64,000 nt of DNA from NCBI RefSeq assembly GCF_055900595.2, contig NZ_CM148325.1; one strand, given 5' to 3'. Position numbers and translations under genes: made by a program. Position 1 is the stretch's first letter. Every line of letters starts with the position of its first letter. The notes beneath the pieces were generated by a model that saw only the letters and a program-made list of their open reading frames with translations, made no database searches and was not told the DNA's origin. This document shows positions 45,136 to 64,000 of this stretch, one piece after another.

Positions 45136-45235
45136 TTCCCGTTTTATTCAATGAGGGTTGCTCGGCAACCCTCATTGCTCATTGATTCTTATCTGTGTAT
45201 CACCGTCATCATTCTCATCTGAGAACCAATCGAAA

Positions 45236-45418
45236 TTAACAACAGCCTTCTTCTGTATGCAGCAAGGCAAAAAGTTCTGTAACTCCATTGTTATTAACTG
45301 CACTGGTTACTAACACGTTGTGCGCTCCAGCTTCCCGTAACCAACTTTTCACCAAAGATATTTGTTCCATGCTGGCTAAATCTGCTTTGGTTACTACTCC
45401 AATGACCGGGTGATTCAT
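45236..45418 (-). pseudogene. Putative EutP/PduV-like GTPase C-terminal fragment
   Basis: The C-terminal 60 aa of ORF 45236..45592 (MNHPVIGVVTKADLA...GVTELFALL) resemble a EutP/PduV C-terminus; the N-terminal part of that ORF is antisense to an IS remnant and is likely spurious. Confidence 0.35.
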
Positions 45419-45474
45419 GGCCCGGTAGGGCGTTTTTACCTCTAATTCCTGCTTCAGCGCTGAGATTCCTGCTT

Positions 45475-45648
45475 GTTGCCGGAAAAGCAGGCACCTGCCG
45501 TCTGAACGGTATCGATCCGGAAGCGTATCTGCGCCATATTCTGAGCATACTGCCGGAATGGCCCTCCAACCGTGTTGACGAACTCCTGCCATGGAACGTA
45601 GTTCTCACCAATAAATAAGCGTCAATACGGTGCTCCGTTGACGCTTAC
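45475..45648 (+). mobile_element. IS66-family element remnant (3-prime end: transposase C-terminal fragment plus terminal inverted repeat)
   Basis: Plus-strand translation ...CRLNGIDPEAYLRHILSILPEWPSNRVDELLPWNVVLTNK* parallels the C-terminus of the intact IS66 transposase at 56160..57731 (…[30 protein letters not shown]…); terminus ...accgtattgac...cgcttac matches the IS66 end at 56130. Confidence 0.6.
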
Positions 45649-46032
45649 TTTAATCCGTTTTCTGAGCTTAGATTTTTCTGTTCCTACCCAGACCGTGGAT
45701 TTGGAATTCATTTTTTGTCAGGTCAATGCTAATCGTTAAAACGGCCATAACGCACCTCCACTGGAAGGTTTATCAGTAATATCCTACCGTTGCTTCATGG
45801 TCGGGGCGTCCATTCCATTATTATCGGTTTTCCTTTCTGTTTATAAATGAAAACGCCAGCTGTATTCAGGCTGGCGTCAGGGGAAATGAAGCCTGTTGAG
45901 TGAGATTCACCGCTTCTGGTGCAGAAGCTGCAGATGGCGCAGGGTAAGGACATCTTCTCTTGCCTGCTTAATACAGGACAACAGTGCTGTTTCTGTGGTT
46001 AATGGCACTATACCCTGCATCACTGCATTGTC

Positions 46033-46227
46033 TTACAGCAACTGGTGAGGGCTGGCATAAGTTGCCGGTGTTTCGGTAGAGTCACGGTCATCCACCACGC
46101 GGAGTGAATAACCTTTTTCAGCGGCCTTATTAATCAGTTCAGTGATATTAACACCATCAATGTCAACGACAATGTGCCCCATATCCAGCGCCTGTACGTT
46201 AACGCTGTCGGCTTCCAGTGTCATCAT
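46033..46227 (-). CDS. yeeW: CP4-44-type island protein YeeW
   Basis: 64-aa ORF MMTLEADSVNVQALDMGH...; start overlaps the cbtA stop (ATGA). Confidence 0.75.
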   Translation of the reverse strand: MMTLEADSVNVQALDMGHIVVDIDGVNITELINKAAEKGYSLRVVDDRDSTETPATYASPHQLL

Positions 46228-46597
46228 TTCGCCTCCGGATACTTACCCAGGGTAATGTTATTTACCGTTCTGTAATTGTCGCGGGTCATCAGGCCGGTCG
46301 CCCTGCGAGCCCGGAGGATATCGATGCTGTTTATTAACTGAGAGCGGGTACAGGCGCTGAATCCCGGCTGGTCGGTAGCACCAGCGCGTATTTTTCCACG
46401 AGAAAGTTCACCGCATCACACAGTGAAATGCCTGCCTCAATATGCTGCTCAATCACACGTTCATCGGCAAAAGGTGTGTCATTCAGTGTGAGGCCATAGT
46501 GCTGGTCCAGCAGTCGGGACAGCAGTATCTGCCAGATTTCAACAGGAGACGGGCGAGAACTGGTCGCCTGCCCGGGTAATACAGGTAATGTTTTCAT
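46224..46597 (-). pseudogene. cbtA: CbtA (YeeV) type IV toxin, frameshifted
   Basis: N-terminal 73 aa in ORF 46334..46597 ([10 protein letters not shown]...VEKYALV); the C-terminal part (…LMTRDNYRTVNNITLGKYPEAK*) is readable in another frame; total span is 374 nt, not a multiple of 3; apparent 1-bp deletion near 46377. Confidence 0.7.
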
Positions 46598-46685
46598 ACT
46601 GAAGATTTTCCTGATATGCAGATATAAAAATGGAAAAGTGGCGTGGTGAAAACACCAGGCCGTAGCAGAAGGCTATTCTGGAGAG

Positions 46686-47054
46686 TTAATTTTTCATTTC
46701 GGGCGTCGGATAAACAGCCAGATAAACGTAACCACAACTGCTGAGGGTATCGGCTTTGCAGGTCAGCCCTTTTGCATACAGCGTGACGGTATGCTGATGG
46801 CGGGGATTCAGTTCACCGCTGGTGAGCATGAGTTCCAGTTGTTTCATCAGCAGCGGAAAGGCCTGGTCCAGGTGGTACGCATCTGCATCGCTGAACAGGC
46901 CTCTGATACCGGCGCGGTCGGCAAGGTAATGCAACCGGTTACCCTCCTGCACCAGACGTGCCCCGAAACAGGGCGTCACGGTGCAGGGCAGCCCCCACCA
47001 GGGGCGGTCGTGATTGTCGTCGGGAAGTGTTGTCCCGGGGAGTGTGTCTGACAC
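46686..47054 (-). CDS. cbeA: CbeA (YeeU) antitoxin of the CbtA/CbeA system
   Basis: 122-aa ORF MSDTLPGTTLPDDNHDRPWWGLPCTVTPCFGARLVQEG...; apparently intact. Confidence 0.88.
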   Translation of the reverse strand: MSDTLPGTTLPDDNHDRPWWGLPCTVTPCFGARLVQEGNRLHYLADRAGIRGLFSDADAYHLDQAFPLLMKQLELMLTSGELNPRHQHTVTLYAKGLTCKADTLSSCGYVYLAVYPTPEMKN

Positions 47055-47127
47055 GATAAAATCCTTACAGAAAATCGGCTAAGAATGGTCCGGTAGTGGC
47101 GATAATTCTGCTCATCAGAATTCCCAC

Positions 47128-47349
47128 TCAGTTCAGGGTGACGCTCATCAGCCGGACATACGGACCAAAACTGTCCTTACGGCGTTCAGCAAACACGGCC
47201 AGCACACCGGGAATATCCTGCACTTCACGACCGGTATACGCTTCAGCACTGCCGTGCCAGCGGTATTTACCGGTACAGAACGGAAAAAGACGGGATGTCG
47301 GATGTTGTTGGTGAATACGCATGGCTTCACCACGGGTGATAATTTTCAT
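47128..47349 (-). CDS. yeeT: DUF987-family island protein YeeT
   Basis: 73-aa ORF in conserved order upstream of cbeA. Confidence 0.8.
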   Translation of the reverse strand: MKIITRGEAMRIHQQHPTSRLFPFCTGKYRWHGSAEAYTGREVQDIPGVLAVFAERRKDSFGPYVRLMSVTLN

Positions 47350-47411
47350 AATGGGATACCTCTGAAGACAGAAGATAAAAGTGAAAACAGGTGTGATGTG
47401 GTTGTGAAGGG

Positions 47412-47888
47412 TTAAAGCAGACCATGTTCGGCAAAGGAGAAAACCTGGTTGCCACCGACTATCAGATGGTCCGGCACCCGGATATCCACCAGGCCCAGTG
47501 CCTGTACCAGACGTTCCGTGATAAGGCGGTCTGCCTTACTGGGTGTGACTTCACCGGAGGGGTGATTGTGTGCCAGCACCACGGCAGCGGCATTGTGGTA
47601 CAGGGCGCGTTTAATCACTTCCCGGGGATGGACTTCCGTGCGGTTGATGGTGCCGGTAAAGAGGGTTTCACCGGCAATCAGTTGATTCTGGTTATTCAGA
47701 TACAGCACCCGGAATTCTTCACGCTCCAGTCCCGCCATGTTCAGAATCAGCCATTCCCGTGCTGCACGGGTGGAGGTGAAGGCCACGCCGGGTTCATGAA
47801 GATGGCGGTCCAGGGTTTTCAGGGCCCGTTGAATGAGGCTGCGCTCGCCGGGCGTCATCTCTCCGGGCAGAAAGGAAAGTTGTTGCAT
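47412..47888 (-). CDS. yeeS: RadC-like JAB-domain protein YeeS
   Basis: ORF 47412..47903; JAMM-like motif HNHPSG; start position uncertain. Confidence 0.82.
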   Translation of the reverse strand: MQQLSFLPGEMTPGERSLIQRALKTLDRHLHEPGVAFTSTRAAREWLILNMAGLEREEFRVLYLNNQNQLIAGETLFTGTINRTEVHPREVIKRALYHNAAAVVLAHNHPSGEVTPSKADRLITERLVQALGLVDIRVPDHLIVGGNQVFSFAEHGLL

Positions 47889-47903
47889 TGTGCTTCTCTC
47901 CAT

Positions 47904-48383
47904 TCAGTCGATGATGCGCATAATGGCGCTGCATTCCGGATGCTGCAGGGCGTAATCCCGCAACCGGTAATAATGGACCGTCATGGCATAATTCTCCGTA
48001 CGACAGGCATGATGACTGTACGTCATCAGACAGGCGGCAATACCGGCGGCTTCCGGGCTCATTTCTGCGCGGTTACCGTTCATGGCATTGAACAGTACCC
48101 ATGTTTCGTCATCATCGTCATCCGGTTCGGGTGCCATAAATGCCCCGCCGTTGTTCAGGGTGTACAGATTCCAGATACCACCGCAGTAGTCTTCGCACAG
48201 ACGGTCCATCCAGCCGAAGACACGGGGCTCCAGGGTCACCCACTGTGGAATGAGGCCAAAATGCTGCGGCCAGAAGCTGATGCGCTGTTCATCAGGGACG
48301 AGGCTGGCAACCAACTGAGGCGGATTATTCTCTGGTGTTGTAGCTGAATAAATTGTGGGGGTATTCTGAGAAACGGTTTTCAT
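47904..48383 (-). CDS. Antirestriction protein (ArdB/KlcA-like; YfjX/YafX family)
   Basis: 159-aa ORF with an acidic stretch (EPDDDDDETW), in the position typical for antirestriction genes of CP4-like islands. Confidence 0.75.
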   Translation of the reverse strand: MKTVSQNTPTIYSATTPENNPPQLVASLVPDEQRISFWPQHFGLIPQWVTLEPRVFGWMDRLCEDYCGGIWNLYTLNNGGAFMAPEPDDDDDETWVLFNAMNGNRAEMSPEAAGIAACLMTYSHHACRTENYAMTVHYYRLRDYALQHPECSAIMRIID

Positions 48384-48464
48384 GAGATAACTCTTTAAAT
48401 AACAAATAAATGTGTGTTTTTCAGGAACGAAAGCTGAATGATTCCCTCACTCAGGGAAACGGCA

Positions 48465-49286
48465 TCAGCGCAGGCTCTCCAGCATCGTTTCTGCCATCAC
48501 CCACAATGCGCGATTGAGCTTAATGTCGGTATCAATGCTGTGAATGGCCCGGGTATGGATACGTTTTCCTTTTGCACTGCGACCGGAAATCCCGCCTTTC
48601 AGCATATTCTCCTGGATGGTCTGATATGCGCTCCACAGGTCCTTACCGTAATCCTCCCGGCGTCGCGGCGTCAGAATGTCGGCGGTGGTGACGGGCTGAT
48701 GTTCGTCACCATAACGGTAAGTCAGTGCCGCCTGTGCCAGCGCCTGGCGTGCCGGTGGCGGCAGGACCAGAGACTGCATGGCATCACGCTTCTCCTCTAT
48801 CCGGTCAAACACGCCCACCACCTCGTAAGCCCCTTCGATAACTTTCTCCACTACATTTCCCCGGTGTGGAACACGCACTTCCCCCAGAGACTGGCCACAG
48901 ACGCACCCGTTCTGGCAGACGAACCTGAAGTAACCCGGCAGCATCTGGTAGCTGGAGGTACCGTCATGAGAGTTGAGCAGAATAATTTCAGGGACATGTT
49001 CTCCGTTTATCTCTCCGGCCCGCCGCAGACGCAGCATGTGTTTTGTGTATCCCCGGCGGCCCGGGTCGCGCACACGGGTCTGGCAGGCGAAGAACGGCTG
49101 AAAGCCTTCCCGCTGCAGATTTTCCAGGACGGTAATGGTGGGAATGTACGCATACCGTTCACTGCGGGAGGTGTGCCGGTCTTCCCCAAAAATACTGGGT
49201 ACATGGCGTATCAGTTCTTCATGTGTCAGCGGACGGTCACGGCGTATCTGGTTTGCAGCATAACCAAAACGACTTGCTAATCGCAT
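48465..49286 (-). CDS. DUF932-family protein (YafZ/YfjQ-like)
   Basis: 273-aa ORF typical of CP4-type islands. Confidence 0.7.
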   Translation of the reverse strand: MRLASRFGYAANQIRRDRPLTHEELIRHVPSIFGEDRHTSRSERYAYIPTITVLENLQREGFQPFFACQTRVRDPGRRGYTKHMLRLRRAGEINGEHVPEIILLNSHDGTSSYQMLPGYFRFVCQNGCVCGQSLGEVRVPHRGNVVEKVIEGAYEVVGVFDRIEEKRDAMQSLVLPPPARQALAQAALTYRYGDEHQPVTTADILTPRRREDYGKDLWSAYQTIQENMLKGGISGRSAKGKRIHTRAIHSIDTDIKLNRALWVMAETMLESLR

Positions 49287-49331
49287 ACTTTGCTCCTTAT
49301 CGGTGGTTAAGATTTACTGGTGCAATAAATG

Positions 49332-49368
49332 AAAAAAGCCGCGTCTCCCGGAGAAGACGCGGCCTGAC
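49332..49368 (-). terminator. Rho-independent terminator downstream of the minus-strand secreted-protein genes
   Basis: gccgcgtct...agacgcggc hairpin with a U-run on the minus strand. Confidence 0.55.
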
Positions 49369-49506
49369 GGGTGAAATGAATAAGGTTTATTGTCTGAGAG
49401 GCCTTTCACTGGCGAGCCACGCATTAAGCGGCTTTCCGGTAACAATGGCTGGGGCTGTATTTACCTTTGATATTAATAATGTGCAGAGAAACGCATGGTT
49501 TACTCC

Positions 49507-49917
49507 TTAGATTTTAAGTTTGTCCTGGGCTACAACGACAGGTTTTCCGGATGTGTCGATGACTCCTACCGTCGGTACGCCATTTTTGATTTCGAAGAAC
49601 GGTTTGTTGCTACCTGAGCACAGTTGATTGTCCCCGTATTCAATCATTTGTGCTTTCCCGGTTTTCAGGTTAACTACCGAGACAGTGTAGTCGTAGCACC
49701 AGGCACCACCACGTTCAAGCACGAAAACATAGCTGTTATCTTTATAGTTGAACTGATTCTTTGTCTGGCAATTCATACCGTCAATTTCGGTACAGGAAAA
49801 CGCTTCTGTAGTATTAACGTATTTGATGTTATTTGGCAGTTTTACTTGTTTCGCAGTAGCGAAGACAGAGAACAGAATAGTTACAGCAACGAGTAAAGTT
49901 TTGATAAAAGTTTTCAT
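49507..49917 (-). CDS. Small secreted Cys-containing protein, unknown function
   Basis: 136-aa ORF with a clear signal peptide (MKTFIKTLLVAVTILFSVFATA); low-GC gene. Confidence 0.6.
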   Translation of the reverse strand: MKTFIKTLLVAVTILFSVFATAKQVKLPNNIKYVNTTEAFSCTEIDGMNCQTKNQFNYKDNSYVFVLERGGAWCYDYTVSVVNLKTGKAQMIEYGDNQLCSGSNKPFFEIKNGVPTVGVIDTSGKPVVVAQDKLKI

Positions 49918-49932
49918 GATAGACTCCTTAAA

Positions 49933-50421
49933 TTAGTTAACCGCAGCTACGTAGTTTTTCACCAGATACGCGAATTCATGCACGCCAATTTCACCGAACC
50001 AAACCAGGTAGGCCGGGTCATCTAAACCAAAGTAACGGTAGCCAACAACTTCATGGGTTTTTGGGTTATAGAGTGTTACGATAAAGTCCCAGCCGCAGGT
50101 ATTGGCTTTGCAACCGTCGCCCTGGAACCAGACTGTACCGTTAATGTTTACTGGCGTGATACCTCCACCAGGGCCATCCATATAGCCGCCTTTACCGAAC
50201 ATGCCGCTCAGTCCGACCGGTTTTAATGCTTTGTCGATAGCGGCTTTGTAGGTAGCGTCACCTTCGTACAACTCGTACGTTGATGGACACGCTCCAGGTT
50301 GTTCAGCCCAGGCTTCCGGGTTACAACTAAGAGCTTGTTTTACGGTAGCCGCTTCTGCGTTAAAGTTAAAGCCCGTGAACAGAACCGCCAGAAATAACAT
50401 AAGGGTATGTAAACGTTTCAT
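49933..50421 (-). CDS. Secreted Cys-rich protein, unknown function (C-terminal part of ORF 49933..50724)
   Basis: Internal Met followed by a signal peptide (MKRLHTLMLFLAVLFTGFNFNAEA) with an SD-like ggaag upstream; the upstream in-frame 101 codons encode another signal-like segment. Confidence 0.5.
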   Translation of the reverse strand: MKRLHTLMLFLAVLFTGFNFNAEAATVKQALSCNPEAWAEQPGACPSTYELYEGDATYKAAIDKALKPVGLSGMFGKGGYMDGPGGGITPVNINGTVWFQGDGCKANTCGWDFIVTLYNPKTHEVVGYRYFGLDDPAYLVWFGEIGVHEFAYLVKNYVAAVN

Positions 50422-50751
50422 TGTAAATATTCTTCCGTTGTAAATGGCGCTGGAAAATTTCTCATCAGTGAAACCTTCCGGAAGTTTCCCCCCCTTGTAT
50501 GATGTATATCGCCAGTATTTTATTTCATCCCGGCTGTAATTTTTATATTCCCCGGCACGTGCAATAACGCTGACCAGAGATATAAGGCTCATTAATAACT
50601 TTACAGGTAATTTCATAATTAAATTTCCAGTGAGTGAATTGACAGGTGAGGGGTAAAACTTTCTCTCAGGTAATATATATCTGAAAATATTTTCAATAAC
50701 ACCAGACAGGAAAAACACCACCACAGGCGGTGGCGTTTCTTTGGGGCGTCT

Positions 50752-51822
50752 TTATTTAATCCGGGCCATCGCGTTTCTCAGTGCCAAATCTGCCTCTTCC
50801 GTTATATCCAGGCTTTTCTGCAATACCGCCTCTGACCGGGTCAGTGCCTGACGTGCTGCCAGCGGTTTCCGGATATGCTCCATCGCCAGCATCGTGTCTT
50901 CATAGCCCTGCTGACGCCAGGCGTCGGTATGTGCCGATGTAAAACTGAGCAGACCGCCGCTGTTGCCACCATCACCTGCATATTTCAGCCTTTTCCGGGG
51001 ACGGATCTCAAGGATTGTGGTGTCCGGAAAAGCCTGGCGATCCCATAAAGAACCGTCACTCAGATGCGTCACAATCACCATATTGCATCCGGCATCGACC
51101 AGAGGTGTCACAGGGGTATTTCCCTGCATATTTCGCCATCCTCCCATACCACCATCACCGAACATTGTCCCCTGAACCTCACGGGGACGGAACAGCAGGG
51201 GCAGCGCGGCTGACGCAAGCAGAGCCTCTTTCTGCTGTCCGCGGGGCAGGCTCTGGATATGCTGAAAAACGGCGTTTTTCGTGGTTCCGACACCCAGTTC
51301 AGCACGAATGCAGTCAATAATATCCTGCATGCCCCCTTCTGTGGGGTACAGCGACACATACAGCGGTAGCCCGTCTGCCAGAGCATCAGTATCAAGATAA
51401 TGATCCATCAGCGCTGTCAGGGGTTCATCTGACAACAACGGCTGAGCCATCAGATTGTCAAACCCGTTGATTGTCGATATATGGCGAAGAAGCGTCGTAA
51501 GCAGTGCTCCTGCACGTCCGGGGATCTGGCAGAGGTTCATTGCCTGGAACAATTTTTTCAGCAATGAAAAGTAAACCAATCTGTTTACCGACAGCACCTG
51601 ATTATTCCCCAGATGATCCCAGAGCGCCTCCAGGCGTACGGCAGCTTCTGACAGATCGGGAGAGGCCACGATAATGGCACCATTGAATGCGCCAATGCTG
51701 GCCCCTGAAACCATGCTGATCTGTGTACCACACTCTGCCAGTGCCTTAACCACTCCCGCCTGATAAGCGCCCACCGCCCCGCCACCGGACAGCACCAGCC
51801 CCGTTTTCATTTCTGTACTCAT
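50752..51822 (-). CDS. Patatin-like phospholipase
   Basis: 356-aa ORF with a Gly-rich oxyanion motif (SGGGAVGAYQAG), GxSxG nucleophile (GASIG) and DGG catalytic Asp motif (FGDGGMGG); start overlaps the upstream gene stop. Confidence 0.85.
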   Translation of the reverse strand: MSTEMKTGLVLSGGGAVGAYQAGVVKALAECGTQISMVSGASIGAFNGAIIVASPDLSEAAVRLEALWDHLGNNQVLSVNRLVYFSLLKKLFQAMNLCQIPGRAGALLTTLLRHISTINGFDNLMAQPLLSDEPLTALMDHYLDTDALADGLPLYVSLYPTEGGMQDIIDCIRAELGVGTTKNAVFQHIQSLPRGQQKEALLASAALPLLFRPREVQGTMFGDGGMGGWRNMQGNTPVTPLVDAGCNMVIVTHLSDGSLWDRQAFPDTTILEIRPRKRLKYAGDGGNSGGLLSFTSAHTDAWRQQGYEDTMLAMEHIRKPLAARQALTRSEAVLQKSLDITEEADLALRNAMARIK

Positions 51823-52724
51823 GCAGCCCCCTTCTGAAATATTTCATCGACCATACTTTCAGAGAGGCGTTCTGCAGAGCAGAGGCGAGGCATGCGAACC
51901 GGTAAGTGTTCTGCAGCCTGCGTGGTTGACCAGATCACCGGATGCTGCTCTTCACTGCACCAGTCTCCCAGCCAGTTAATCGCGTCATGCCACTCGTTAT
52001 CTGCCTGCTCCCGGCCCTGACCACCAAGCCAGTCCAGAGTGTTCAGACGCACGGTTGCACTACCGCCACTCTCCTGTGCCATCTGCGTTAATGCTTTATG
52101 TCTGAGAATATCCAGTAGCTGGTTAACCTGGCCTGTTTCGCTCTGACGTATCACATCACCAAACGCGCCCCAGCGAAGCTCTTCAAGTGCCACATAACAA
52201 CGTCCGGCAGGGGAAAATGACGCATATCGCCCGGCGCTCCACCATGAGAATATCTGCTCAAGATGTAACTGCGCCCGCTGAACCTGGTCAACACGGTGGA
52301 GTTTTTCTTCAAGATGATTCAGTTTATGGTGAACCTGATCGGCCAGGGTGAGTAACTGCTCCCGCGTATCTGCGGAATAATGCGCCAGCCTGGCTGTATC
52401 ACTGACCAGTGAACTGACCCTGTCGTTTACCCGGGTAATCGCGTAGTTTGTGGTGGCAAGTGACGTTGTCATCTCCGTCAGCCAGCGCAGGGACGCCTCA
52501 ACGCCCTGTGCAAGCGACGCATTGATGGCATTCTGCCGTGCAGCGCCTTCGCCGGTCAGCCCCTCTTTTAAACGCCGGAAGAACGTGCGCTCTCCGGCCG
52601 TGCGGATATGCTCCTGTGCAACATCGATTCCGTTTGCGAAATCAACCACAAATTTTTCAGGAAGACAGGTGAGTACCTGACATACCCGGTTATCAGCAAT
52701 TTGTTGAATAAATGGTGAAGTCAC
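51819..52724 (-). CDS. Hypothetical protein, predicted helical, no recognisable domain
   Basis: 301-aa ORF whose start and stop overlap the dynamin-like and patatin-like genes by 4 bp each. Confidence 0.7.
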   Translation of the reverse strand: MTSPFIQQIADNRVCQVLTCLPEKFVVDFANGIDVAQEHIRTAGERTFFRRLKEGLTGEGAARQNAINASLAQGVEASLRWLTEMTTSLATTNYAITRVNDRVSSLVSDTARLAHYSADTREQLLTLADQVHHKLNHLEEKLHRVDQVQRAQLHLEQIFSWWSAGRYASFSPAGRCYVALEELRWGAFGDVIRQSETGQVNQLLDILRHKALTQMAQESGGSATVRLNTLDWLGGQGREQADNEWHDAINWLGDWCSEEQHPVIWSTTQAAEHLPVRMPRLCSAERLSESMVDEIFQKGAA

Positions 52725-55117
52725 AGCATTGTCTCCAGCTCTTCCCTCAGCGCCTTACTGTCAGTAATGAGCTCAGGAACCCTTTCATTTAATGCCTGAA
52801 GTCGCCCGGTAAGTCGTTCCTGCGCCTGCTGATCGCGTTTATGATCTTCAGAGCTCTGAATCAGCGTGTTACGCAGTTGTTCAACTTTCTCCCTGAATGC
52901 GCAGAAAAAGGCATCGATTTCCTGGCGGACGGGCTGGTTAATATCCTGCTCAATGGATGCCTGCAGCTCCCCGAAATATGCCCGGGTCAGTGACATAACT
53001 TCCTCTCTGACCTTGTTGATATTGATCACGCTGCGACTCACATCCTCGTCATAGTTTTCCCAGCCCAGGTCACTGGTGCCAAACCATCGACAAACGGTTC
53101 CCCATACGCCACTCTGCCGACGGCGACGGGTGACGGTCTCCGTTCTTTCCTCCATAAGCGCACTCAGATTTATTTTTACCGCGAGCCGGGTCTGTAACTG
53201 GCTGACTGCCGGAAAACTGATTTTTACGGTAAAGCCCTCATCCTCCAGGCGGGCATTGATGCGACCGGCAATGTTTTCTGTGGCGTACAGGGCCGTGCCA
53301 CGAAAACCTGTTTCAATCCCGCTGACGATTTTCTCCAGCTCAGGCCGGAACTGTGCTTCAGCCTCACGGTGCAGGCTGGTCACGGTCGATTCGATTTGCG
53401 TCATCAGTTCAAGGGCTTCCCTGCGATCACTGAATTTTATTTCGGGGCTGTCCGGGGCAAAATCTCGTTTCCTGTAATCCTCCCGGCCCTGGTTGTTGAT
53501 ACCGGACCATTGAGAAATTTTCCCCCATAATCCGGACTGAGACCTTCGTTGTTCTGCGTCTTCTTCCTCCAGCATTTGCTGTTCTTTGCGTTTACCGCTT
53601 CTGAAATAGTCATTCAGCTCCTCTTCCAGTGAGGTGCAGACCCCCGTCAGTAATTCCCGGGTTTTAGTATCGATCTCCTCCATGGCCATTCTGACATCAG
53701 TGGTCATCTGCTCCTGACAGTCCGCGATTTCCCGGATATCCGCAAGCAGGCTGGTGATATGCGACTGCAGTGACTGAATGCTTTGCTGTAGCCCCTGATG
53801 GCGTAACAACAGGTATTCACTGATATTTTCTGCATTCTGCATCAGTTTTGCGGCGGCAGAGTCAACCGCCAGTGCCGCAGCTCTGGAATGTGAGCTCTGT
53901 ATGACTTCCGTTATCAGTTGATCGATAAGTGAGCCTTCCCACAGGTCTGTCGCCCCTTCAGTTGCCAGTTCACTGTCTTTACAGACGTATTCTTTTTTCA
54001 TGCAACCGAAGGCACCTCTGATAAAATCATCGACCCAGGCTTCATCAACAGGAAGGGTTCCGTTTTTCCGTAACTCATGAAGCGCACGGTTAGCCAGGTA
54101 TGCCTGGCGTGAGGATCCGGGATAAACGCGGGAGGCGGGCAGCACATTGCTGTTCAGCATTGCCGGAACTTTCTGGCGTACGGCATCTGCCCCATCGCCA
54201 TTGCGGTCTTTCTCATCAAATTTATTGACCAGTACAAACAGGCGGCCGGCTGATACGTCAGCAATGGCATTAAGCTCTTTACGGACGTCTTCATCCGCTT
54301 TTGAGTTCATCTGTGTGTAATCCATCACAGCCAGAACCGCAGAGGCTTTCTGCAGTTGATCCCGCATCATCACTTCCATCTGCGGTTGTCCGGCCTCATT
54401 AGGGCCGGGGGTATCCAGCAGTGTGAGTGTTCCCTGGCATGCATCCATCCCCACCAGATGGCTGAATTCCACGTCGATCACCGGCAGTTTCTGCACTTCT
54501 GCGTATTCATCAAAAGGAAATTCAGTCCCCATTGCCGCAGCAAGACGAACCAGATCGTTTAACGATGCCAGTCCGGTAAAGATTTCCTCCTCCCCGTGGT
54601 ATTCATTTTTGAGCCAGCCATCATCCGTCAGAATATCCAGCAGTTCGCGGGTATCCCCGGTTTGCTGCAGGGTCTGTGCGACCTGCTGTCCTGCCGGGGT
54701 GGCGAGTTTTTCCTGCAGTGTGATTAATAAATTGCGGACAGGCTGAATATGTTCCAGATGGAGAACCGGCTCAGTTTTTCCGGGAACGTGGCGGATGAGC
54801 GTCGGTACAGAGGTCATGGGGCGGTTACGGTTAGGCAGAATTTCCTGCCCCACAATGGCGTTGATGGTGGTTGATTTGCCTGCTTTCATCGTGCCGACAA
54901 CAGCCAGCACCATCTCCCTGCGGGCGGTTTTGATTTGTTCGCCCTCCAGCTCCTCAATTCTTTTCAGTGCTTTCTGTTTATCAAAAAGCAGTCTGTTTTC
55001 GTTCTTACTGTCAGATAACACATCTGGCTCCTCAACCATTTGCCGGAGCAGATTAATGTTCAGTTGCAAAAGTCGGTCGGCTTCATCACAAAGCAGGGCG
55101 ATGTTCTTTTCGTGCAT
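52721..55117 (-). CDS. Bacterial dynamin-like large GTPase
   Basis: 798-aa ORF with G1 P-loop GTMKAGKST (aa 75-83), G3 DTPG (aa 235-238), G4 NKFD (aa 298-301), and a long helical C-terminal half with two repeated RxQSG.WG...W motifs. Confidence 0.85.
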   Translation of the reverse strand: MHEKNIALLCDEADRLLQLNINLLRQMVEEPDVLSDSKNENRLLFDKQKALKRIEELEGEQIKTARREMVLAVVGTMKAGKSTTINAIVGQEILPNRNRPMTSVPTLIRHVPGKTEPVLHLEHIQPVRNLLITLQEKLATPAGQQVAQTLQQTGDTRELLDILTDDGWLKNEYHGEEEIFTGLASLNDLVRLAAAMGTEFPFDEYAEVQKLPVIDVEFSHLVGMDACQGTLTLLDTPGPNEAGQPQMEVMMRDQLQKASAVLAVMDYTQMNSKADEDVRKELNAIADVSAGRLFVLVNKFDEKDRNGDGADAVRQKVPAMLNSNVLPASRVYPGSSRQAYLANRALHELRKNGTLPVDEAWVDDFIRGAFGCMKKEYVCKDSELATEGATDLWEGSLIDQLITEVIQSSHSRAAALAVDSAAAKLMQNAENISEYLLLRHQGLQQSIQSLQSHITSLLADIREIADCQEQMTTDVRMAMEEIDTKTRELLTGVCTSLEEELNDYFRSGKRKEQQMLEEEDAEQRRSQSGLWGKISQWSGINNQGREDYRKRDFAPDSPEIKFSDRREALELMTQIESTVTSLHREAEAQFRPELEKIVSGIETGFRGTALYATENIAGRINARLEDEGFTVKISFPAVSQLQTRLAVKINLSALMEERTETVTRRRRQSGVWGTVCRWFGTSDLGWENYDEDVSRSVININKVREEVMSLTRAYFGELQASIEQDINQPVRQEIDAFFCAFREKVEQLRNTLIQSSEDHKRDQQAQERLTGRLQALNERVPELITDSKALREELETML

Positions 55118-55379
55118 TATTTAACCTTCCTAAGACGCATTTTCATGACAACCACGGAGGAGGTCATTTACTACAAACGATCGTTTATAACGATCGATAT
55201 GATAGTAACGATCGATGTATTCTATTAACTTGAGAAACACAACGCAAGGGGACAACCCGGGTATGGCTGCGTTTGCATAGTGTTTTCATGGAGTTAAAAA
55301 TCTGTAACAACAGCCTGGTACATCACCACCGGGTTCAGAAGAAAATCCAGTTCCATACCGCGCGGGCAACAGAGACCAC

Positions 55380-56129
55380 CTAGTCACGGACGGCGCGCAG
55401 AACCGTGCGTGCAACAGAGGCAATGCAGACGCTCTCCGCCGTGTCAAATATCCGGTCCACCGCACCGGTAAACTGTTCACGGGCCTGAGACCGGACAGAC
55501 TCCGTGCGCAGCTCGTCCTGCAGGCGGGTCATCAGGGGACTGGCGGCATGGTCGGGAAGTGCTGTCATGAGCGCACTGACCAGCGTATCCAGTTCCCAGC
55601 CGGTGCGGGCCGATACGGCAACAACCCGATGTACGGGCCGGAACAGACGGAATACCGCCTCCGTTTTTTCGCGAATGTTCTGTGCCTGTGCGGGAGAAGG
55701 CTGAATACCGGCCATATCCCATTCATGGCAGGGCTCCGTTTTATCGGCCTGCATCACCACAAACAGTACCCGCTGATGTCCCCGGTGCAGGATGTGTCGC
55801 CAGAAATACTCATCCACAGACAGGGCACGGTCATCGGCTTTAATCAGCCACAGTACCAGGTCCAGTTCGAGCAGAATGTCACGGTACAGGGCTTCATACT
55901 CTGCATCCCTGTCCCGGCTCTCGCCCACCCCGGGCAGGTCAGTGATAACCATGCTGTGACCATGGCCATTCAGACGGAAGCGCTGCACTTCCCGGGGGCC
56001 GGCGTGAACATCACTGACCGGGGTGACCTCCCCCTGAAACAGCGCATTACAGAGTGAGGATTTACCGGCCCCGCTTTTACCCATAATGCCAGGCACGGGT
56101 TCGTGACTGGTGAGTTTGCGCAGATGTTC
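55380..56129 (-). pseudogene. YeeP/YfjP/YkfA-type small GTPase, 3-prime portion, disrupted by IS66 insertion
   Basis: ORF 55380..56096 (P-loop GIMGKSGAGKSSL, DLPG); the reading frame continues upstream to the IS boundary; the 5-prime portion lies beyond the IS. Confidence 0.75.
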
Positions 56130-56159
56130 GTAAGCGACTCGTCAGAACCGTATTGATAT

Positions 56160-57731
56160 TTACTGAGAGCTCAGATCAACTTTCCAGGGCAACAGATCGC
56201 GTACCCGGTTTGCCGGCCAGTCCTGGATATGTTCAATGACGTAACGCAGCCACTTTTCTGGCTCCACATTGTTCAGACGGCATGTGCCGATCAGCGAGTA
56301 CAACACCGCCGCATGTTCACCACCGCTGTCGGAACCCGCGAACATCCAGTTTTTCCGGCCTACGGCCACTCCCCGTAAGGCGTTCTCTGCGATGTTGTTG
56401 TCGATTTCCACCCAGCCATTACTGCAGTACACGTTCAGTGCATCCCACTGTTTCAGCAGGTATGCGAACGCTTTTGCCGTATCTGAGTGACGCGACAGTG
56501 TTTTCATCTGTTGCTGTATCCAGTCATACAGTGACTGCATCAGTGGCGCGGCTCTGGCTTTTCTTGCCGCCAGACGCTGTTCTGCTGAACAGCCCCGGAC
56601 CTCTGCCTCGATGGCATACAGTTCACCGATACGCTGCAGGGCTTCCGTGGTGATGTAGGTGGGCGCTCTTGCATGCACATCGTGGATTTTTCTCCGGGCA
56701 TGAGCCATACACGCGGCTTCCGTTATTCTGCCGGATTCGTATAACGCCCGGTAACCACCGTAAGCATCGGCCTGAAGCACACCGCTGTAACCGGCCAGGT
56801 GATTTTGTGGATGGATACCTTTCCGGTCCGGACTGTACGCGAACCAGACCGCCGGGGGCATCTGTGAACCGGCGTTACGGTCATCACGGACGTAGACCCA
56901 CAGCCGGGCTGTCCGGGTTTTACCGCTGCCCGGCTCCTGGACCGGGACGGGGATATCATCAGCATGGACTTTACCGGGCATCAGCACATACTGGCGCAGG
57001 ACGTCATACAGCGGCTCCAGCAGTTCAGCAACAGCACCTGTCCAGCGCCCCAGTGTGGCACGGCTCAGCTCCACTCCCTGACGACGGTATATTTCTGACT
57101 GGCGGTATAACGGCAGATGGTCTGCATATTTCCCGGTGACAACATGGGCCAGAAGCCCCGCTCCGGCATAACTGCGTGCAATGGGTTTTGAAGGTACTGG
57201 TGCCTGCACGATATGGTCGCACCGGCAACAGGCCTGTTTCGGACGTTGTGTTTCGATAACCTTAAAGGCGCTGCTGATAAGCTCCAGTTGCTCTGACACA
57301 TCACATCCCAGAGAACTGAGTTCACCACCACAGGCAGGACAGCATTCCTCTTCCGGCCGGATAACCCGGGTTTCACGGGGAAGTGAGGCCGGTAACGGTT
57401 TACGGGCTGAAGACTGGCGCAGGGCGGATGGCAGTACCGGGTCATATTGCTCACCCAGCGTTTCCGCCATTTCTTCCTGAAGTGCGCTGATTCGCTCCTG
57501 TGCTTCCTGTATCTGCCGTTCGGTTTTTGCACGAAGTTTTTCTGAGCTTTTACCGAACTGCATACGTTGCAGTTTCGCAACCAGCGCCTTCAGCCGGTTG
57601 ATTTCGGAAGCATAAGCCGCCACCCGCTGTGAGAGCAGGCGGTTGTATTCAGCCATCTGGCGGATGGTGTCCTGTTGCGTCTGCAACAGTGCCCGCAGGC
57701 GGGCGTTCTCATGAGCAAGTGAGGTGTCCAT
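56160..57731 (-). CDS. IS66-family transposase (orfC)
   Basis: 523-aa ORF with N-terminal coiled coil, zinc-finger-like CxxC pair and the typical C-terminus. Confidence 0.88.
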
Positions 57732-57750
57732 ATCCTCACTTTACAACGGG

Positions 57751-58098
57751 TTATATGCGGATTCCAGCGCGTTCCGTTCGTTTCGGGTGCTTCCAGTTGA
57801 TACCTTCAAGAAGCATGGATAACTGAGCCGGAGTAAGGTGCACCTTGCCGTCACGGGTGACTGGCCAGACGAAGCGGCCCCGCTCCAGGCGTTTGGTGAA
57901 GAGGCACAGTCCGTCACTGTCAGCCCACAACACTTTTATCTGGTCACCCCGGCGTCCGCGGAAGATGAACAGGTGTCCGGAGAACGGGTCATCCTTCAGG
58001 ACGTTCTGAACTTTTGATGCCAGGCCGTTAAAGCCATTTCGCATATCGGTGATACCTGCAACCAGCCAGATACGCGAACCTGCAGGGAGAGATATCAT
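57751..58098 (-). CDS. IS66-family accessory protein TnpB (orfB)
   Basis: 115-aa ORF directly upstream of orfC. Confidence 0.85.
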   Translation of the reverse strand: MISLPAGSRIWLVAGITDMRNGFNGLASKVQNVLKDDPFSGHLFIFRGRRGDQIKVLWADSDGLCLFTKRLERGRFVWPVTRDGKVHLTPAQLSMLLEGINWKHPKRTERAGIRI

Positions 58099-58775
58099 CA
58101 GTGGCTGCTCCCTTTTATTTCGCGGATAAGTGTCTGTAATAACGCCGGCGTCAGTTTACCTTTAAGCCTGAGAGTTCCGGCCGGCAGAACCAGCTCACAA
58201 CACAGACTGTCGGACGGTGTATTTATCCGCTCTGGTTCCTGTGCGGGGGCCGGGATTTTATTATCCGGCTCCGGCGTTAACGTCACGGGAAGCAGTGCCG
58301 GCATATTTTTTCCGGAAGGCAGCAGGCCACCTTTCCGGTATTGATGGCGCCAGTTGAAGAGCAGGTTATCGTTGATTCCGTTTTCCCGGGCGATCTGCGC
58401 CACACAGGCTCCGGGCTGCAGTGACTGCTCCACTAAGGCGATTTTAAACTCATAAGGGAAGTTGGGCCGCCGGGGACGTTTTTTTACCACGGGGGCTTCG
58501 GATATAACGGTGCTTTCAGGACGTACGACTGGTACCGTGGAAAATTGTCCGTAAAGGCAGGCATCAAGTTCCTGCTCCGACATGCCTGCGGGCAAAGGCC
58601 ACGAAAGGCCAGCTCTCCGAAAGCGCACGAACATACTACAAACTGTTGATTTTGGTACACCCAGGCGACGCCCGGCCACAACCCGGGGTAAATGTTCTTC
58701 AAAGTGAAGACGTAAAGCTTCAGTGATCCAGGTCCGGTGTTTCATACGATAGTGTCCATTAAAAATGATGGACAT
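58098..58775 (-). CDS. IS66-family orfA (HTH protein), possibly with an N-terminal extension
   Basis: 225-aa ORF; the C-terminal two thirds resemble IS66 orfA; true start may be internal. Confidence 0.7.
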   Translation of the reverse strand: MSIIFNGHYRMKHRTWITEALRLHFEEHLPRVVAGRRLGVPKSTVCSMFVRFRRAGLSWPLPAGMSEQELDACLYGQFSTVPVVRPESTVISEAPVVKKRPRRPNFPYEFKIALVEQSLQPGACVAQIARENGINDNLLFNWRHQYRKGGLLPSGKNMPALLPVTLTPEPDNKIPAPAQEPERINTPSDSLCCELVLPAGTLRLKGKLTPALLQTLIREIKGSSH

Positions 58776-58826
58776 TATTTTTGTAGAGCCGGAGGAAACA
58801 GACCAGACGGTTTAAATGAGCCGGTT

Positions 58827-58914
58827 ACAGATGTTCCAGGATGTGACGGGAAAGTGAGTAAGGCAGGGAGGAGAGCGGTTTTTCAATTGCCTCAATGGCA
58901 TCAGACGGATTCAT
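58827..58914 (-). pseudogene. YeeP/YfjP-type small GTPase, 5-prime portion (N-terminal about 29 codons)
   Basis: Minus-strand reading MNPSDAIEAIEKPLSSLPYSLSRHILEHL runs into the IS66 target duplication and continues in frame after the IS (RKLTSHEPVPGIMGKSGAGKS...). Confidence 0.5.
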
Positions 58915-58997
58915 ACATGTATTCCCGGTGAAAAAAGACAAAACCCCGCGCACCGGAAAGGTGGCGGGGGATTCACGGAAATAATATCTGTCTGAAA

Positions 58998-60161
58998 TTA
59001 TCTGGAATCGATTTGGCTGTTCTGCCTGGTTGCCACCAAATCATGGTACGCCTGCTCAATCATTTCATTCAGCAGTTTTTTTGGGAGGACACCACGACTT
59101 CGGGCAATACTTTCAAGCTGTTTGTGGATTTTTCCGGACAGTTTCAGAGGGACGGAACCATCAGCACGTTCATCACGCCTTTTTTGTTGCTCCCGGGCAC
59201 TTTTCAGCTCATCAAGAAGAATCGCTTTATGCTGAATCCTGGGGGCCTGGAAGGAGACCTGCGTAAACTTCGCTCTGTTCCGTCTGGGATTACTTTCCAG
59301 TAAAAACTGTACCTGTTGCTCATTCCAGCCCTCCCAGTTATCAAACGTGGCGCAGGCAAACCAGTATTTCTGCTCCGGGGTAAGGGGATTCAGCGGGGTT
59401 CCCACACACCGGACCTGCATGGCGTTCCATAACCAGTCACACTGTTCACTGTCCCTGCTGTCCACCCACGAAAAGGGGGAGGGGTAATCATTGTTTATGC
59501 TGGCCCATTCAGAGAATACTGAGTTGATAATCGTCCTCGTAGCCTCTGGTCCGGATTTCAGCAGGTAACTGGAGCAGAACCATATAATTTCACGGTAGAT
59601 TTTATCCGGATGCACGGTGCGCATCGGCTTTTCTCTGGGACCGGCAATCTTCGGTTGCGATGGAAACCCCGTGGCAAACCGCAGATGTTCCGGGGGCATT
59701 CCTGAACGTTTTTCAGGAATGGGTGTGAGTCCTGCGTTTCTGGTCTTTTCCGCTTGTCCGGTATTGCCTCCGGCCGGAGTGTTGTCGGGAGTATCTTCCG
59801 GAGGCGAGGTGTTTTCATTAGTTGGGGGAACAACAGCAGAACTGTCCATCTCCGGAATGGGTTGAGGGGCATAATCACTGTGGTAGCCAGGGGAAAGCGT
59901 TAAGTCCCGAAGGGTGACATCAGGTTCCGGGCAGTGAGTGCCACCGGGAGTGAACGGGAGTTGTTGCTTTTGGGAGAAAAATGTATTGTGAATGCGGGTA
60001 TACAGCTGGAACAGAAAAAAATAAGATGCCCGTGGTTCTTTTTTTAACCACTGTGTATATTCCTCTATGGCACCGAGCTGTTGTTTGTGCCGTTTTACAG
60101 CATCGATATACGGACAGCTGGTGCAGATATCATCCAGTTCCTTTCCCACAATACACCTCAC
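58998..60161 (-). CDS. Hypothetical island protein
   Basis: 387-aa ORF with a Pro/Thr-rich low-complexity centre and a basic C-terminus; start uncertain. Confidence 0.45.
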   Translation of the reverse strand: MRCIVGKELDDICTSCPYIDAVKRHKQQLGAIEEYTQWLKKEPRASYFFLFQLYTRIHNTFFSQKQQLPFTPGGTHCPEPDVTLRDLTLSPGYHSDYAPQPIPEMDSSAVVPPTNENTSPPEDTPDNTPAGGNTGQAEKTRNAGLTPIPEKRSGMPPEHLRFATGFPSQPKIAGPREKPMRTVHPDKIYREIIWFCSSYLLKSGPEATRTIINSVFSEWASINNDYPSPFSWVDSRDSEQCDWLWNAMQVRCVGTPLNPLTPEQKYWFACATFDNWEGWNEQQVQFLLESNPRRNRAKFTQVSFQAPRIQHKAILLDELKSAREQQKRRDERADGSVPLKLSGKIHKQLESIARSRGVLPKKLLNEMIEQAYHDLVATRQNSQIDSR

Positions 60162-61680
60162 CTGCTTTTCTCACATTTGCAGATTTTAAAAAAGCAAACA
60201 AAAACCTCCGTACATGATGTACAGAACAATCTACCAGGTAGTGGCGTCAGAAAACCCCCGGGCCGCCTGCACTTTCCGGAATGCGCCGGTTATGAAAAAC
60301 CGGAAATTCAGTCTCTGTTGTAAGATGTACCCTCTGATACTACGTTTTCTCTGTGTATTTAACTCACTGTATTTATTGTCTTTTTAAGCTTGACTGATAT
60401 TCTCCGGTCATAGTGTGCCGGATATACATCCCGTAAACTTCTCATTTTTATATAAAAATACCTGCACTCTCTTCAGCGCATCTGTCTCCTTTAAGTAAAA
60501 AATGTTTTCACGTATTGCTGTAAATTCATTTTAAATCAGTATATTACCTTGATATTGCTGTCTCCTGGTTTGATGCGTAATCGTTCTGCCTTTCTGGATG
60601 ATTCTGGTGCTTCCGGGTGCATTCTCCTCTGCACATGCAACAGTTCGTCATCGCCACGCTCCCAAAAAGCATATAAAAACGAATCGAATTTGATATTTTT
60701 TTCAATCGTTTTTCATAGGAATTTCGTAGGGTATTCTCCGCTATAACCTCCATATTTGCTGCCTTTTTCTCCATAAATCGTATGCAATATAGCCTGTCTG
60801 TCAAGACCTCTTCTCTGCTGTTGAGGAGACGATCTCATTTTTGGTCTTTTCCGGGAGAGAGGCTGTCAGATGAGCGAGCCGGATATACTGTCAGAGGTAC
60901 ACCCCGTAGCAGACCTGTGCTCCCATTTCCGCGATCCGGAACCAACAACACCCTACGGTTAATACCATTTGAAGCGTCAGGTACTGCAGGAAGTTCCCCC
61001 CTGCGCGGACATCGGTTCCTGCCGACATCTCACAATACGGCCAGACTGTCATGCAGTAACACCCGCATGCGGTCTGCGGTTTTAAGCGCACTCTCCCGTT
61101 TTCAGTGCACCGATAATGCGTCATAGTAAGTCTGGGGGAAGTTACGGAATGCCTGTTAAGTGGTGCCGTGGGTGGAGACAGCTTACTTTTCTACAGCAAC
61201 TGCAGTCATTCAGGATGATCAGGAGATATTCTGTCAATGTCACGATCCTGCCATTTTCGTACCCGCTAAGATACTTCCGTTACTGATGCTGTCCGCTTTT
61301 CACCATTTCATCCTCACTGACAGGCGTTGCGTTTTGGGTCATCACCACAGCTTTACGTTTCTCTTTTAACCGGTAACGCTCTCCTTTGATATTCAGCGTG
61401 GTTGAGTGATGCAGCAGTCAATCCAGGAGCGCTGTTGTCCGGCAACCACCATATCAACTTCTTCCCGGGTGTGGCGGAGAGGTGGTATCCTGGCTGAGTT
61501 TCGAAGCGAACCGTTCTTTTTGACGGGCGCATTTTACGTCCGGGCTGAATGTAGTAACGCGGCATGGAACGTCGGCCCGTATACCATTGCCTTAATCTCC
61601 GCAAAGATAACCTCGTCATTCCGGACATTCTCTGCCAGGCATATGTCGATGTAATCCATAAACGATTTCAGCTTACCCCT

Positions 61681-63638
<1,958 letters not shown>

Positions 63639-64000
63639 TTTGTGGCCAGTCTTTCTGGCTGGCGGTTCAGGGGATGTTTTCTGGTTATCGTGTACCACAA
63701 AGCAGGGATATTGCCCCGATAGTCACATTTCAGATTGATCGCGGTCTGAAGATGTGGCACTGAGGTAACGTGCTGGTGTCACTGGTATTGCTGAAGTTAT
63801 GGTTTTTCGGGGTCAGGTGAGCCTGTTGTGTGTATGCTTTTTGTTCAGGTCAGAGGGGGACTGTGTGGACAGCGGCTTTTGTCTCCGGGCATTCACGCCT
63901 GAACGATGAATGCGATTTTCAGCAATATTTGTCTTTGTGACACTCTCTGGTTGAGAAGCTAATGCGCGCCCCTGTTTCCACAGAGAATGAGGCTTGCCAT

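Follow-up and report, generated by a model that had tools for sequence, protein, structure and literature searches.

The window analysed here, a 64,000-nucleotide stretch of an Escherichia coli genome, carries a CP4-44-type island next to yeeA and tmaR, and in this island a gene for a P-loop GTPase is split in two by an insertion sequence. The inserted element is a complete 2,699-bp copy of ISCro1, a member of the IS66 family, at positions 56130-58828 on the minus strand. It is the sole copy of ISCro1 in the window, and its genes run in the same direction as the interrupted GTPase gene. ISCro1 was first catalogued in Citrobacter rodentium ICC168 and occurs widely in E. coli, on chromosomes and on plasmids.

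The initial annotation had described an IS66-type element with three open reading frames, and profile searches bore this out, with all three predicted proteins scoring above the curated NCBIfam cut-offs. On the minus strand, tnpA (58098-58775) encodes a 225-aa IS66 accessory protein (NF038385, IS66_access_TnpA; 294.5 bits, cut-off 150), tnpB (57751-58098) a 115-aa IS66 accessory protein (NF033819, IS66_TnpB; 128.9 bits, cut-off 50), and tnpC (56160-57731) a 523-aa IS66-family DDE transposase (NF033517, transpos_IS66; 477.9 bits, cut-off 180). The match to TnpC spans profile positions 5-386 of 387; that to TnpA begins only at residue 13, and RefSeq annotates an identical 678-nt tnpA coding sequence in other genomes. 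The genes follow the IS66 order of tnpA, tnpB and tnpC on one strand, and the tnpB start overlaps the tnpA stop by 1 base (ATGA).

The termini of the element are imperfect inverted repeats. The tnpC-distal end (56130-56150), GTAAGCGACTCGTCAGAACCG, matches the reverse complement of the opposite, tnpA-proximal end (58808-58828), GTAACCGGCTCATTTAAACCG, at 15 of 21 positions, and both arms begin with GTAA. The tnpA-proximal boundary was drawn from this comparison and from full-length copies elsewhere. The element aligns from position 1 to 2699, at 100% identity, with many E. coli copies that carry the RefSeq label 'IS66-like element ISCro1 family', and since such copies sit in unrelated contexts (a porin gene, traU, plasmids), the ends are fixed independently of the site studied here. 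Approximately 1,492 of 5,426 genomes have a place that covers 80% or more of the IS query, a count that possibly includes related IS66-family elements.

Indirect evidence, namely the RefSeq/PGAP annotation of identical copies and a length that matches the published 2,699 bp, allows the element to be named ISCro1. A 2,699-bp ISCro1 with an 8-bp target-site duplication has been described on an IncHI1 plasmid (PMC12115866), and one paper gives the EC958 copy as 2,824 bp (PMC8764528). A search with the exact right-end 20-mer through species-representative genomes, a collection that may or may not include C. rodentium, returned no C. rodentium contig, and the E. coli element may be identical to the type copy or slightly different from it.

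ISCro1 splits a full-length allele of yeeP

The interrupted gene is a full-length allele of K-12 yeeP. This follows from both sequence and position: the island is flanked by yeeS...yeeW, tmaR and yeeA, as is CP4-44, and the K-12 pseudogene, which has the same place in the chromosome, is 96.2% identical at the nucleotide level over its 3' 505 nt, in keeping with the earlier description of the gene as a YeeP-type GTPase. The reconstructed protein contains, as a YeeP/YkfA/YfjP-type island GTPase should, a P-loop GTPase domain at residues 40-148 (PF01926, MMR_HSR1; 4.6e-12), and its NCBIfam matches to Era, MnmE and Der are weak and below cut-off.

ISCro1 is bounded by two copies of the octamer AGATGTTC, at 56122-56129 and 58829-58836, each of which directly abuts the element. 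The octamer occurs three times on the plus strand of the window, including these two, and the chance of the same octamer standing at both ends is 4^-8, or approximately 1.5e-5. The initial annotation had rightly proposed an intact 8-bp duplication and had located its first copy correctly, whereas it had put the second at 58819-58826, which is 10 bases too low. When the IS and one octamer are taken out, a continuous 275-codon frame (MNPSD...RAVRD*) results, as had also been predicted; the repeats adjoin the IS termini and the rebuilt frame is open throughout, the two points on which that earlier reading had been made to depend. The rebuilt empty site matches natural sites in many E. coli genomes at 100% over 1,148-1,150 bp, which agrees with the precise insertion that had been suggested, and annotation treats the gene at these natural sites as intact, under the name "GTPase family protein". 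In 2,941 of 5,426 genomes, a place was found that covers 80% or more of the empty-site query.

Together, the mapped ends, the 8-bp duplication, the empty site and a near-identical strain without the insertion show that ISCro1 has split yeeP, and no evidence was met against the insertion itself. We assign a probability of roughly 0.95 to the explanation as a whole, namely that ISCro1 transposed into the octamer AGATGTTC of a full-length yeeP allele. By analogy with what is known of DDE transposases, staggered cuts would have been made in the target 8 bp apart, and repair of the gaps would then have produced the duplication.

The split lies after codon 29, 12 codons before the P-loop. The 5' fragment (58829-58914, minus strand; codons 1-29) belongs to an open reading frame at 58825-58953 that ends ...RHILEHL; the third base of its Leu29 codon (CTG) is supplied by the IS end at 58828, and its translation ends at a TAA within the IS terminus (58825-58827). 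The 3' fragment (55380-56129, minus strand) extends from codons 27-29, which are duplicated, through to the stop and holds the P-loop, GKSGAGKS. It has no promoter, ribosome-binding site or ATG of its own, the earliest possible start being a GTG at 56096 without a Shine-Dalgarno sequence, and two stop codons part it from tnpC, which lies in the same frame. Since the break precedes the P-loop, the 5' piece is closed by the TAA, and the 3' piece lacks initiation signals and follows two stops after tnpC, the native GTPase is predicted not to be made. A 238-aa, N-terminally truncated protein might conceivably be produced from the GTG at 56096, and in a few genomes RefSeq calls such 3' fragments 'GTPase family protein' coding sequences.

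The allele carries a second lesion, a premature TAG at 55380-55382 on the minus strand (S276*, TCG to TAG; G to T at 55381 on the plus strand), identified by comparison with other loci. The usual YeeP-type protein has 290 aa, of which S276* removes the last 15 residues. Codon 276 is TCG in S88 and nine other loci, and the TAG is shared with M160133, a strain with an empty site; the nonsense codon is older than the IS insertion. On the other side of the element, a consensus scan placed a terminator-like hairpin with a T-run at 58944-58958 (minus strand), between an upstream 387-aa open reading frame and the GTPase start. An Rfam search of positions 44000-64000 at the gathering score, in which isrC as in K-12 was considered, gave no known RNA.

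Repeated insertions around the 5' end of yeeP

In the interval 1604-1982 of the reference, ISCro1 or a close relative has entered no fewer than 11 distinct octamers, in both orientations. The region hit, approximately 370 bp in length, comprises the first 223 bp of yeeP and the preceding 150 bp. Ten of the octamers were mapped at both junctions and are perfectly duplicated; the eleventh (~1759-1766) holds an older relative and was mapped at one junction. All nine mapped octamers that lie inside the 873-bp gene fall in its 5'-most 223 bp, and a further insertion near position 1320 is indicated by its span only. Apart from the insertion in the window, every fully mapped ISCro1 insertion in or beside yeeP-type loci (16 of 16) has a perfect 8-bp duplication; the seventeenth case, in CRE1540, is an older IS66 relative for which one junction only was mapped.

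The octamer AGATGTTC is itself occupied on a different haplotype, in the same orientation, in one complete genome, DSM 103246, and in the opposite orientation in TB354 and CDE6306; it has been used two or three times. Thirty-two genomes considered as sharers of the window's insertion were rejected as such, their sites being different: site and orientation are common only to DSM 103246. By orientation, approximately 12 insertion positions agree with yeeP and approximately 8 oppose it. An orientation bias, through selection for read-out transcription, had been suggested by the first nine occupied loci, all co-directional, and was discarded when a query for the opposite orientation added 11 genomes; the apparent bias was an artefact, because the query had been built for one orientation.

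One explanation of this clustering, to which we give nearly even odds, is target choice, with a regional hot spot determined by the local structure of the DNA, by a bound protein or by transcription; the insertion in the window would then be a further hit of the same kind. The number of octamers used in both orientations within so short an interval, the confinement of the intragenic ones to the 5' end, and the reuse of the window octamer all argue for it, as does a control search in which the flank of the downstream dynamin gene yielded 1 genome and the yeeP flank 19 (same orientation). Furthermore, ISCro1 does show a target sequence preference: 32 independent sites gave a weak, palindromic consensus, C-N-[G-N-W-N-N-W-N-C]-N-G, and most observed sites rank high in a weight matrix built from them. 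However, this consensus fails to explain the cluster, because the hot region is not enriched in high-scoring sites, and the window octamer scores at the 59th percentile. Nor was any mimic of an IS end found within 1 kb of the target at up to 4 mismatches over 15 specified positions, and the GC content around the target is ordinary. The insertion counts, moreover, rest on a single best place for each genome of one collection and are not a genome-wide census, the control was searched in one orientation, and the strains counted are not phylogenetically independent samples of opportunity.

The alternative that insertions are distributed by selection or tolerance has, in our estimate, rather less than an even chance of being right. 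Under this explanation, null alleles at the 5' or promoter-proximal end would be neutral or favoured, and insertions in 3' yeeP, whose products would be truncated P-loop proteins, would be lost, as would those in the dynamin operon. The gene decays often: besides the 5'-truncated pseudogene of K-12 and S276* in the window allele, internal stops or frameshifts are found in yeeP of ETEC1730 and DSM 103246, and other types of IS interrupt it in EC4, MS 119-7 and an O121 strain. The occurrence of both orientations is likewise what would be expected if disruption alone matters. However, two insertions, at reference positions 1869 and 1975, are situated before the start of the coding sequence, which remains intact, and selection alone does not predict the reuse of one octamer.

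Returning to targeted insertion, we propose tentatively that the 5' end of yeeP-type genes (approximately 220 bp of coding sequence and 150 bp upstream) may be a true ISCro1 hot spot, with AGATGTTC used independently two or three times and the cluster left unexplained by the consensus. If this is true, it points to an unknown cue for target selection in the IS66 family, for which a bound protein, the structure of the DNA or its state of transcription would be candidates. A literature search on IS66-family target preference or YeeP function found nothing specific, and the repeated hits within approximately 370 bp, with the derived consensus, offer a starting point for the study of target choice in this poorly understood family.

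Age of the insertion and the downstream genes

With the IS removed, the window aligns to the empty-site strain M160133 over 13,915 bp with a single gap and no mismatch. This and the complete identity of the IS to copies elsewhere agree with the recent insertion proposed in the initial annotation; judged by these comparisons, the insertion is very recent, which shows that ISCro1 is currently active in the lineage of the window strain. That the occupied site is instead ancestral, the empty genomes having lost the element by precise excision, is extremely improbable: IS excision does occur at low frequency and nothing specific supports it here, whereas most matching genomes have the uninterrupted sequence, a single complete genome shares site and orientation, the IS and the flanks show the identities just given, and every such excision would have had to take out exactly one octamer as well.

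Downstream of yeeP lie genes for a dynamin (CrfC/RdcA-like), an RdcB-like protein and a patatin. The insertion may alter their expression, as the initial annotation had suggested, whether by a polar or an activating effect. They probably keep a promoter of their own within the 262 bp that separate the GTPase stop from the start of the dynamin gene, where a promoter-like site at 55199-55228 (minus strand) agrees with the consensus hexamers at 9 of 12 positions, a match that is not functional evidence. An outward promoter in the IS end was also considered, and a consensus scan showed no promoter-like site pointing out of the element. The single published test of ISCro1 placed upstream of a gene recorded a fall in transcription (PMC8764528). 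M160133 and the window strain, with the site empty in one and occupied in the other and no mismatch over 13.9 kb, form a clean natural pair in which to study the effect of ISCro1 on adjacent genes.

The GTPase, dynamin, RdcB-like and patatin proteins gave no significant defence-system match against the PADLOC models. A known anti-phage defence system was rejected as a candidate, the matches being to LeoBC at approximately 20-22 bits (GTPase, dynamin) and, faintly, to a phospholipase effector (patatin protein).

Comparison with known systems

That a known 2.7-kb mobile element has entered an E. coli GTPase gene near its start, in a prophage island, is an ordinary event, already known in kind. 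It is a textbook case of IS insertion turning an accessory-island gene into a pseudogene, of a sort that annotation pipelines already flag, and is of little importance alone; the recurrent hits by ISCro1 in the same short region of yeeP are a mildly interesting side result.

As an ISCro1, the element shows no structural difference from the known one, sharing its 2,699 bp, its tnpA-tnpB-tnpC order, its imperfect repeats beginning with GTAA and its 8-bp duplication. IS66 and IS679, the prototypes of the family, as reportedly set out by Han et al. in 2001, have three genes with tnpA and tnpB overlapping, a DDE transposase in TnpC and an 8-bp duplication; the organisation here is the same, although the element is a different member of the family and its TnpA is long (225 aa).

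The gene occupies the same locus as K-12 yeeP (b1999) of the cryptic prophage CP4-44, within yeeS-yeeT-cbeA-cbtA-yeeW ... tmaR-yeeA, and both copies are inactivated P-loop GTPase genes. The K-12 copy, however, is truncated at its 5' end and followed by isrC and flu (Ag43), whereas the window copy, but for the IS and S276*, is full-length and is followed by the dynamin, RdcB-like and patatin genes rather than flu.

A further parallel is found in E. coli ST131, where ISCro1 lies in the regulatory region of afa/dr, at a site described by the authors as a hot spot of IS integration, and where the insertion lowered afaA transcription by approximately 2.5 log2-fold (PMC8764528). In both cases the same element sits just upstream of an accessory operon; the afa/dr insertion is intergenic and its effect on expression was measured, whereas that in yeeP is intragenic and known from sequence.

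Structure and identity of the inserted element

Reading of window positions 55200-59400 revealed three co-directional minus-strand ORFs sandwiched between two pieces of one reading frame: tnpA (225 aa, 58098-58775), tnpB (115 aa, 57751-58098, overlapping tnpA by 1 base in ATGA) and the IS66 transposase gene (523 aa, 56160-57731). A script search placed copies of AGATGTTC at 56122-56129 and 58829-58836, both abutting a 2,699-bp segment (56130-58828) whose termini are imperfect inverted repeats (GTAAGCGACTCGTCAGAACCG / GTAACCGGCTCATTTAAACCG, 15 of 21 positions matching). The initial annotation had thus located the first octamer correctly and rightly described direct repeats at the IS ends, having set the second copy 10 bases too low, at 58819-58826. 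An additional copy at 59683 is unrelated to the insertion. Deletion of the segment and one octamer leaves an unbroken 275-codon frame (MNPSD...RAVRD*), as the initial annotation had proposed.

The proposal of a complete IS66-type element is borne out by all three proteins, which exceed their NCBIfam equivalog cut-offs (TnpA, 294.5 versus 150 bits; TnpB, 128.9 versus 50; transposase, 477.9 versus 180), and every defining family feature tested was present. Copies 100% identical over the full 2,699 bp occur in many complete E. coli genomes and plasmids. Their surroundings are unrelated (a porin gene and traU, for example), which fixes the termini independently of the duplication. RefSeq labels all of these copies 'IS66-like element ISCro1 family', and a 2,699-bp ISCro1 generating an 8-bp duplication has been described on an IncHI1 plasmid (PMC12115866). 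We therefore call the element ISCro1, a name that rests on the annotation of identical copies and the published length rather than on an ISfinder alignment. In Citrobacter rodentium, where ISCro1 was first catalogued, it is the most expanded IS (PMC3072379). The window holds this one copy only; at least 80% of the IS query was covered at one place in about 1,492 of 5,426 genomes, a figure in which related IS66-family elements may be counted too.

An exact search of species-representative genomes with the right-end 20-mer returned 27 contig ends of the Escherichia sp. draft MOD1-EC7003 (L019-L045), in which the element is expanded, and three gut MAG contigs (L017, L018 and L046, labelled Segatella copri, Collinsella sp. 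and Lachnospiraceae). The latter are short contigs in MAGs of unrelated phyla, and seem more likely to be mis-binned Enterobacteriaceae contigs than real occurrences.

The interrupted gene and recency of the insertion

Comparison with strains carrying the uninterrupted gene agreed with the proposed event. The rebuilt junction (750 bp left, 400 bp right) matches natural empty sites at 100% over 1,148-1,150 bp in many E. coli genomes, where RefSeq annotates an intact 'GTPase family protein'. In the empty-site reference S88 the gene order is yeeA, tmaR, yeeW, cbtA, cbeA, yeeT, yeeS, an antirestriction gene, a DUF932 gene, then patatin-like, RdcB-family, dynamin-family, GTPase and 387-aa hypothetical genes. 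The reconstructed protein contains an MMR_HSR1 P-loop GTPase domain (Pfam, 4.6e-12). Because the K-12 yeeP pseudogene (b1999, CP4-44) occupies the same chromosomal place with 96.2% identity over its 505 nt, the designation 'YeeP-type' was correct, and the gene is a full-length yeeP allele.

The usual GTPase protein has 290 aa. Codon 276 of the window gene is TAG in place of the usual TCG (S276*; 55380-55382, G to T at 55381), removing the last 15 residues; TCG is kept in S88 and nine other loci. The near-identical strain M160133 (NZ_CP022164) has an empty site and the same TAG allele, and aligns to the window minus the IS and one octamer over 13,915 bp with 0 mismatches and 1 gap. The nonsense mutation therefore preceded the IS, which entered once the lineage had separated from an M160133-like ancestor. 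Together with the 100% identity of the IS to copies elsewhere, these flanks support well the earlier description of the insertion as recent and precise.

Two plus-strand ORFs (340 and 260 aa) at 61771-63572, upstream of the 387-aa hypothetical gene, are the positional counterpart of IS100 istA/istB (IS21 family) in M160133 and WCHEC040047; this synteny, rather than direct alignment, suggests that the island contains a second IS.

Recurrent insertion around the yeeP start

With the whole occupied locus as query, 32 genomes gave at least 80% coverage. These do not represent one event, since fetched loci map to different sites on the S88 empty site. In the S88 frame (L001:11001-15000; GTPase CDS 954-1826, minus strand, ATG at 1826), ISCro1 lies opposite to yeeP at 1604-1611 (mapped in VTB96933v, with three more genomes by identical span), 1645-1652, 1741-1748 (mapped in TB354, with CDE6306 by identical span) and 1748-1755. 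It lies in the same orientation as yeeP at 1678-1685, 1741-1748 (the window and DSM 103246), 1810-1817, 1820-1827, 1869-1876 (mapped in ETEC1730, with three more pig ETEC and possibly AR_0006 by identical span) and 1975-1982, as do a degenerate IS at 1722-1729 and an older IS66 relative at about 1759-1766, for which a single junction was mapped and the duplication is unconfirmed. Every fully mapped site carries a perfect 8-bp duplication. Around the yeeP start, a stretch of about 380 bp (window ~55990-59070; L001:12604-12982) thus holds at least 11 distinct octamers that have received ISCro1 or a close relative, in both orientations. All nine mapped octamers within the 873-bp GTPase gene fall in its 5'-most 223 bp; a further insertion near reference 1320 is placed from span only. 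Four insertions farther upstream, one in a dynamin-linked island and three in Ag43-linked paralogous islands, were verified with perfect duplications.

These counts come from locus and flank searches rather than a genome-wide census. An apparent restriction to the orientation of yeeP was a query artefact: the same-orientation query found 19 genomes and the opposite-orientation query 11 more, corresponding to about 12 and 8 positions, several with offsets from alignment span only. A control query that joined this IS end to a 700-bp flank from inside the dynamin gene, run in a single orientation, found 1 genome versus 19.

DSM 103246 shares the site and orientation of the window on a different haplotype: its flanks show seven differences, of which the closest to the IS is 61 bp away, its IS copy shows two more, and the TAG allele is absent. 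Given this haplotype and the empty site of M160133, an independent insertion is the most economical reading. Since this octamer is occupied in the opposite orientation in TB354, the insertions at AGATGTTC number at least two and probably three.

Target preference and the cause of clustering

Target preference was derived from 32 flanks independent of the yeeP region, with L019-L045 and window 58829-58848 as named sources. These display a weak palindromic preference, C-N-[G-N-W-N-N-W-N-C]-N-G, in which brackets mark the duplicated octamer. Octamer position 6 is A/T in 30 of 32 flanks and position 3 in 26; G stands two positions beyond the octamer in 23, and at position 1 in 15 (binomial p = 0.007). 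We found no published statement of this preference in the literature searched. Under a symmetrised weight matrix, 8 of 11 yeeP-region sites score above the 82nd percentile, indicating that the preference is real.

The clustering itself could reflect selection and tolerance, given the frequent decay of yeeP and the other IS types inside the gene body. In some genomes ISEc12, ISEc62 or IS21 interrupts the GTPase locus or its ISCro1 copy, and in EC4 (L009) the 3' portion of the GTPase gene holds ISEc12, all of which fits such decay. Regional targeting by some other cue could also underlie the cluster. The target consensus is rejected as its cause: the density of high-scoring sites in the hot region does not exceed that elsewhere, the window's octamer ranks at the 59th percentile, and no mimic of the IS ends or unusual composition was found around the target, so that the clustering is not accounted for by these features.

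The ISCro1 insertion in yeeP was described correctly and well by the initial annotation and belongs to a familiar, ordinary class of event; what is modestly new is the repeated entry of ISCro1 into the yeeP 5' region, together with the target consensus.

Consequences for yeeP and the downstream genes

On the coding strand the duplication, GAACATCT, runs through codons E27 and H28 into L29, of which it includes the first two bases. Residues 1-29 are encoded by the 5' fragment, whose TAA stop (58825-58827) is supplied by the end of the IS. The 3' fragment keeps the P-loop GKSGAGKS and is in frame with tnpC, with two stop codons between them (...VDLSSQ* ISIRF* RVAYEHLRKL...); the earliest codon from which it could start, GTG at 56096, lacks a Shine-Dalgarno sequence. 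Judged from this arrangement, the native protein would be lost, in line with the proposed inactivation, and a truncated YeeP product might conceivably still be made weakly. A terminator-like hairpin and T-run at 58944-58958 (minus strand) precedes the GTPase ATG (58914) by only about 30 bp, so that a dedicated yeeP promoter would have little space.

Downstream of the GTPase stop, a 262-bp spacer leads to the dynamin-family gene, which is followed by the RdcB-family and patatin-like genes (50752-55117, minus strand). The 798-aa dynamin-family protein is CrfC/RdcA-like (556 bits, below the equivalog cut-off); the RdcB-family gene (301 aa) is named from S88 RefSeq annotation, and the patatin-like phospholipase gene encodes 356 aa. 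PADLOC returned no defence-system match for this operon beyond faint LeoBC hits, and no Rfam RNA was found in 44000-64000. A consensus scan identified one promoter-like site in the spacer (55228-55199, a consensus match only) and none pointing out of the IS end. As the initial annotation suggested, expression of the downstream operon may be altered by the insertion. In the one published test, ISCro1 upstream of afaA decreased transcription by about 2.5 log2-fold (PMC8764528). In K-12 CP4-44 the place of the dynamin-family, RdcB-family and patatin-like genes of this island is taken by flu (Ag43)/yeeR genes.
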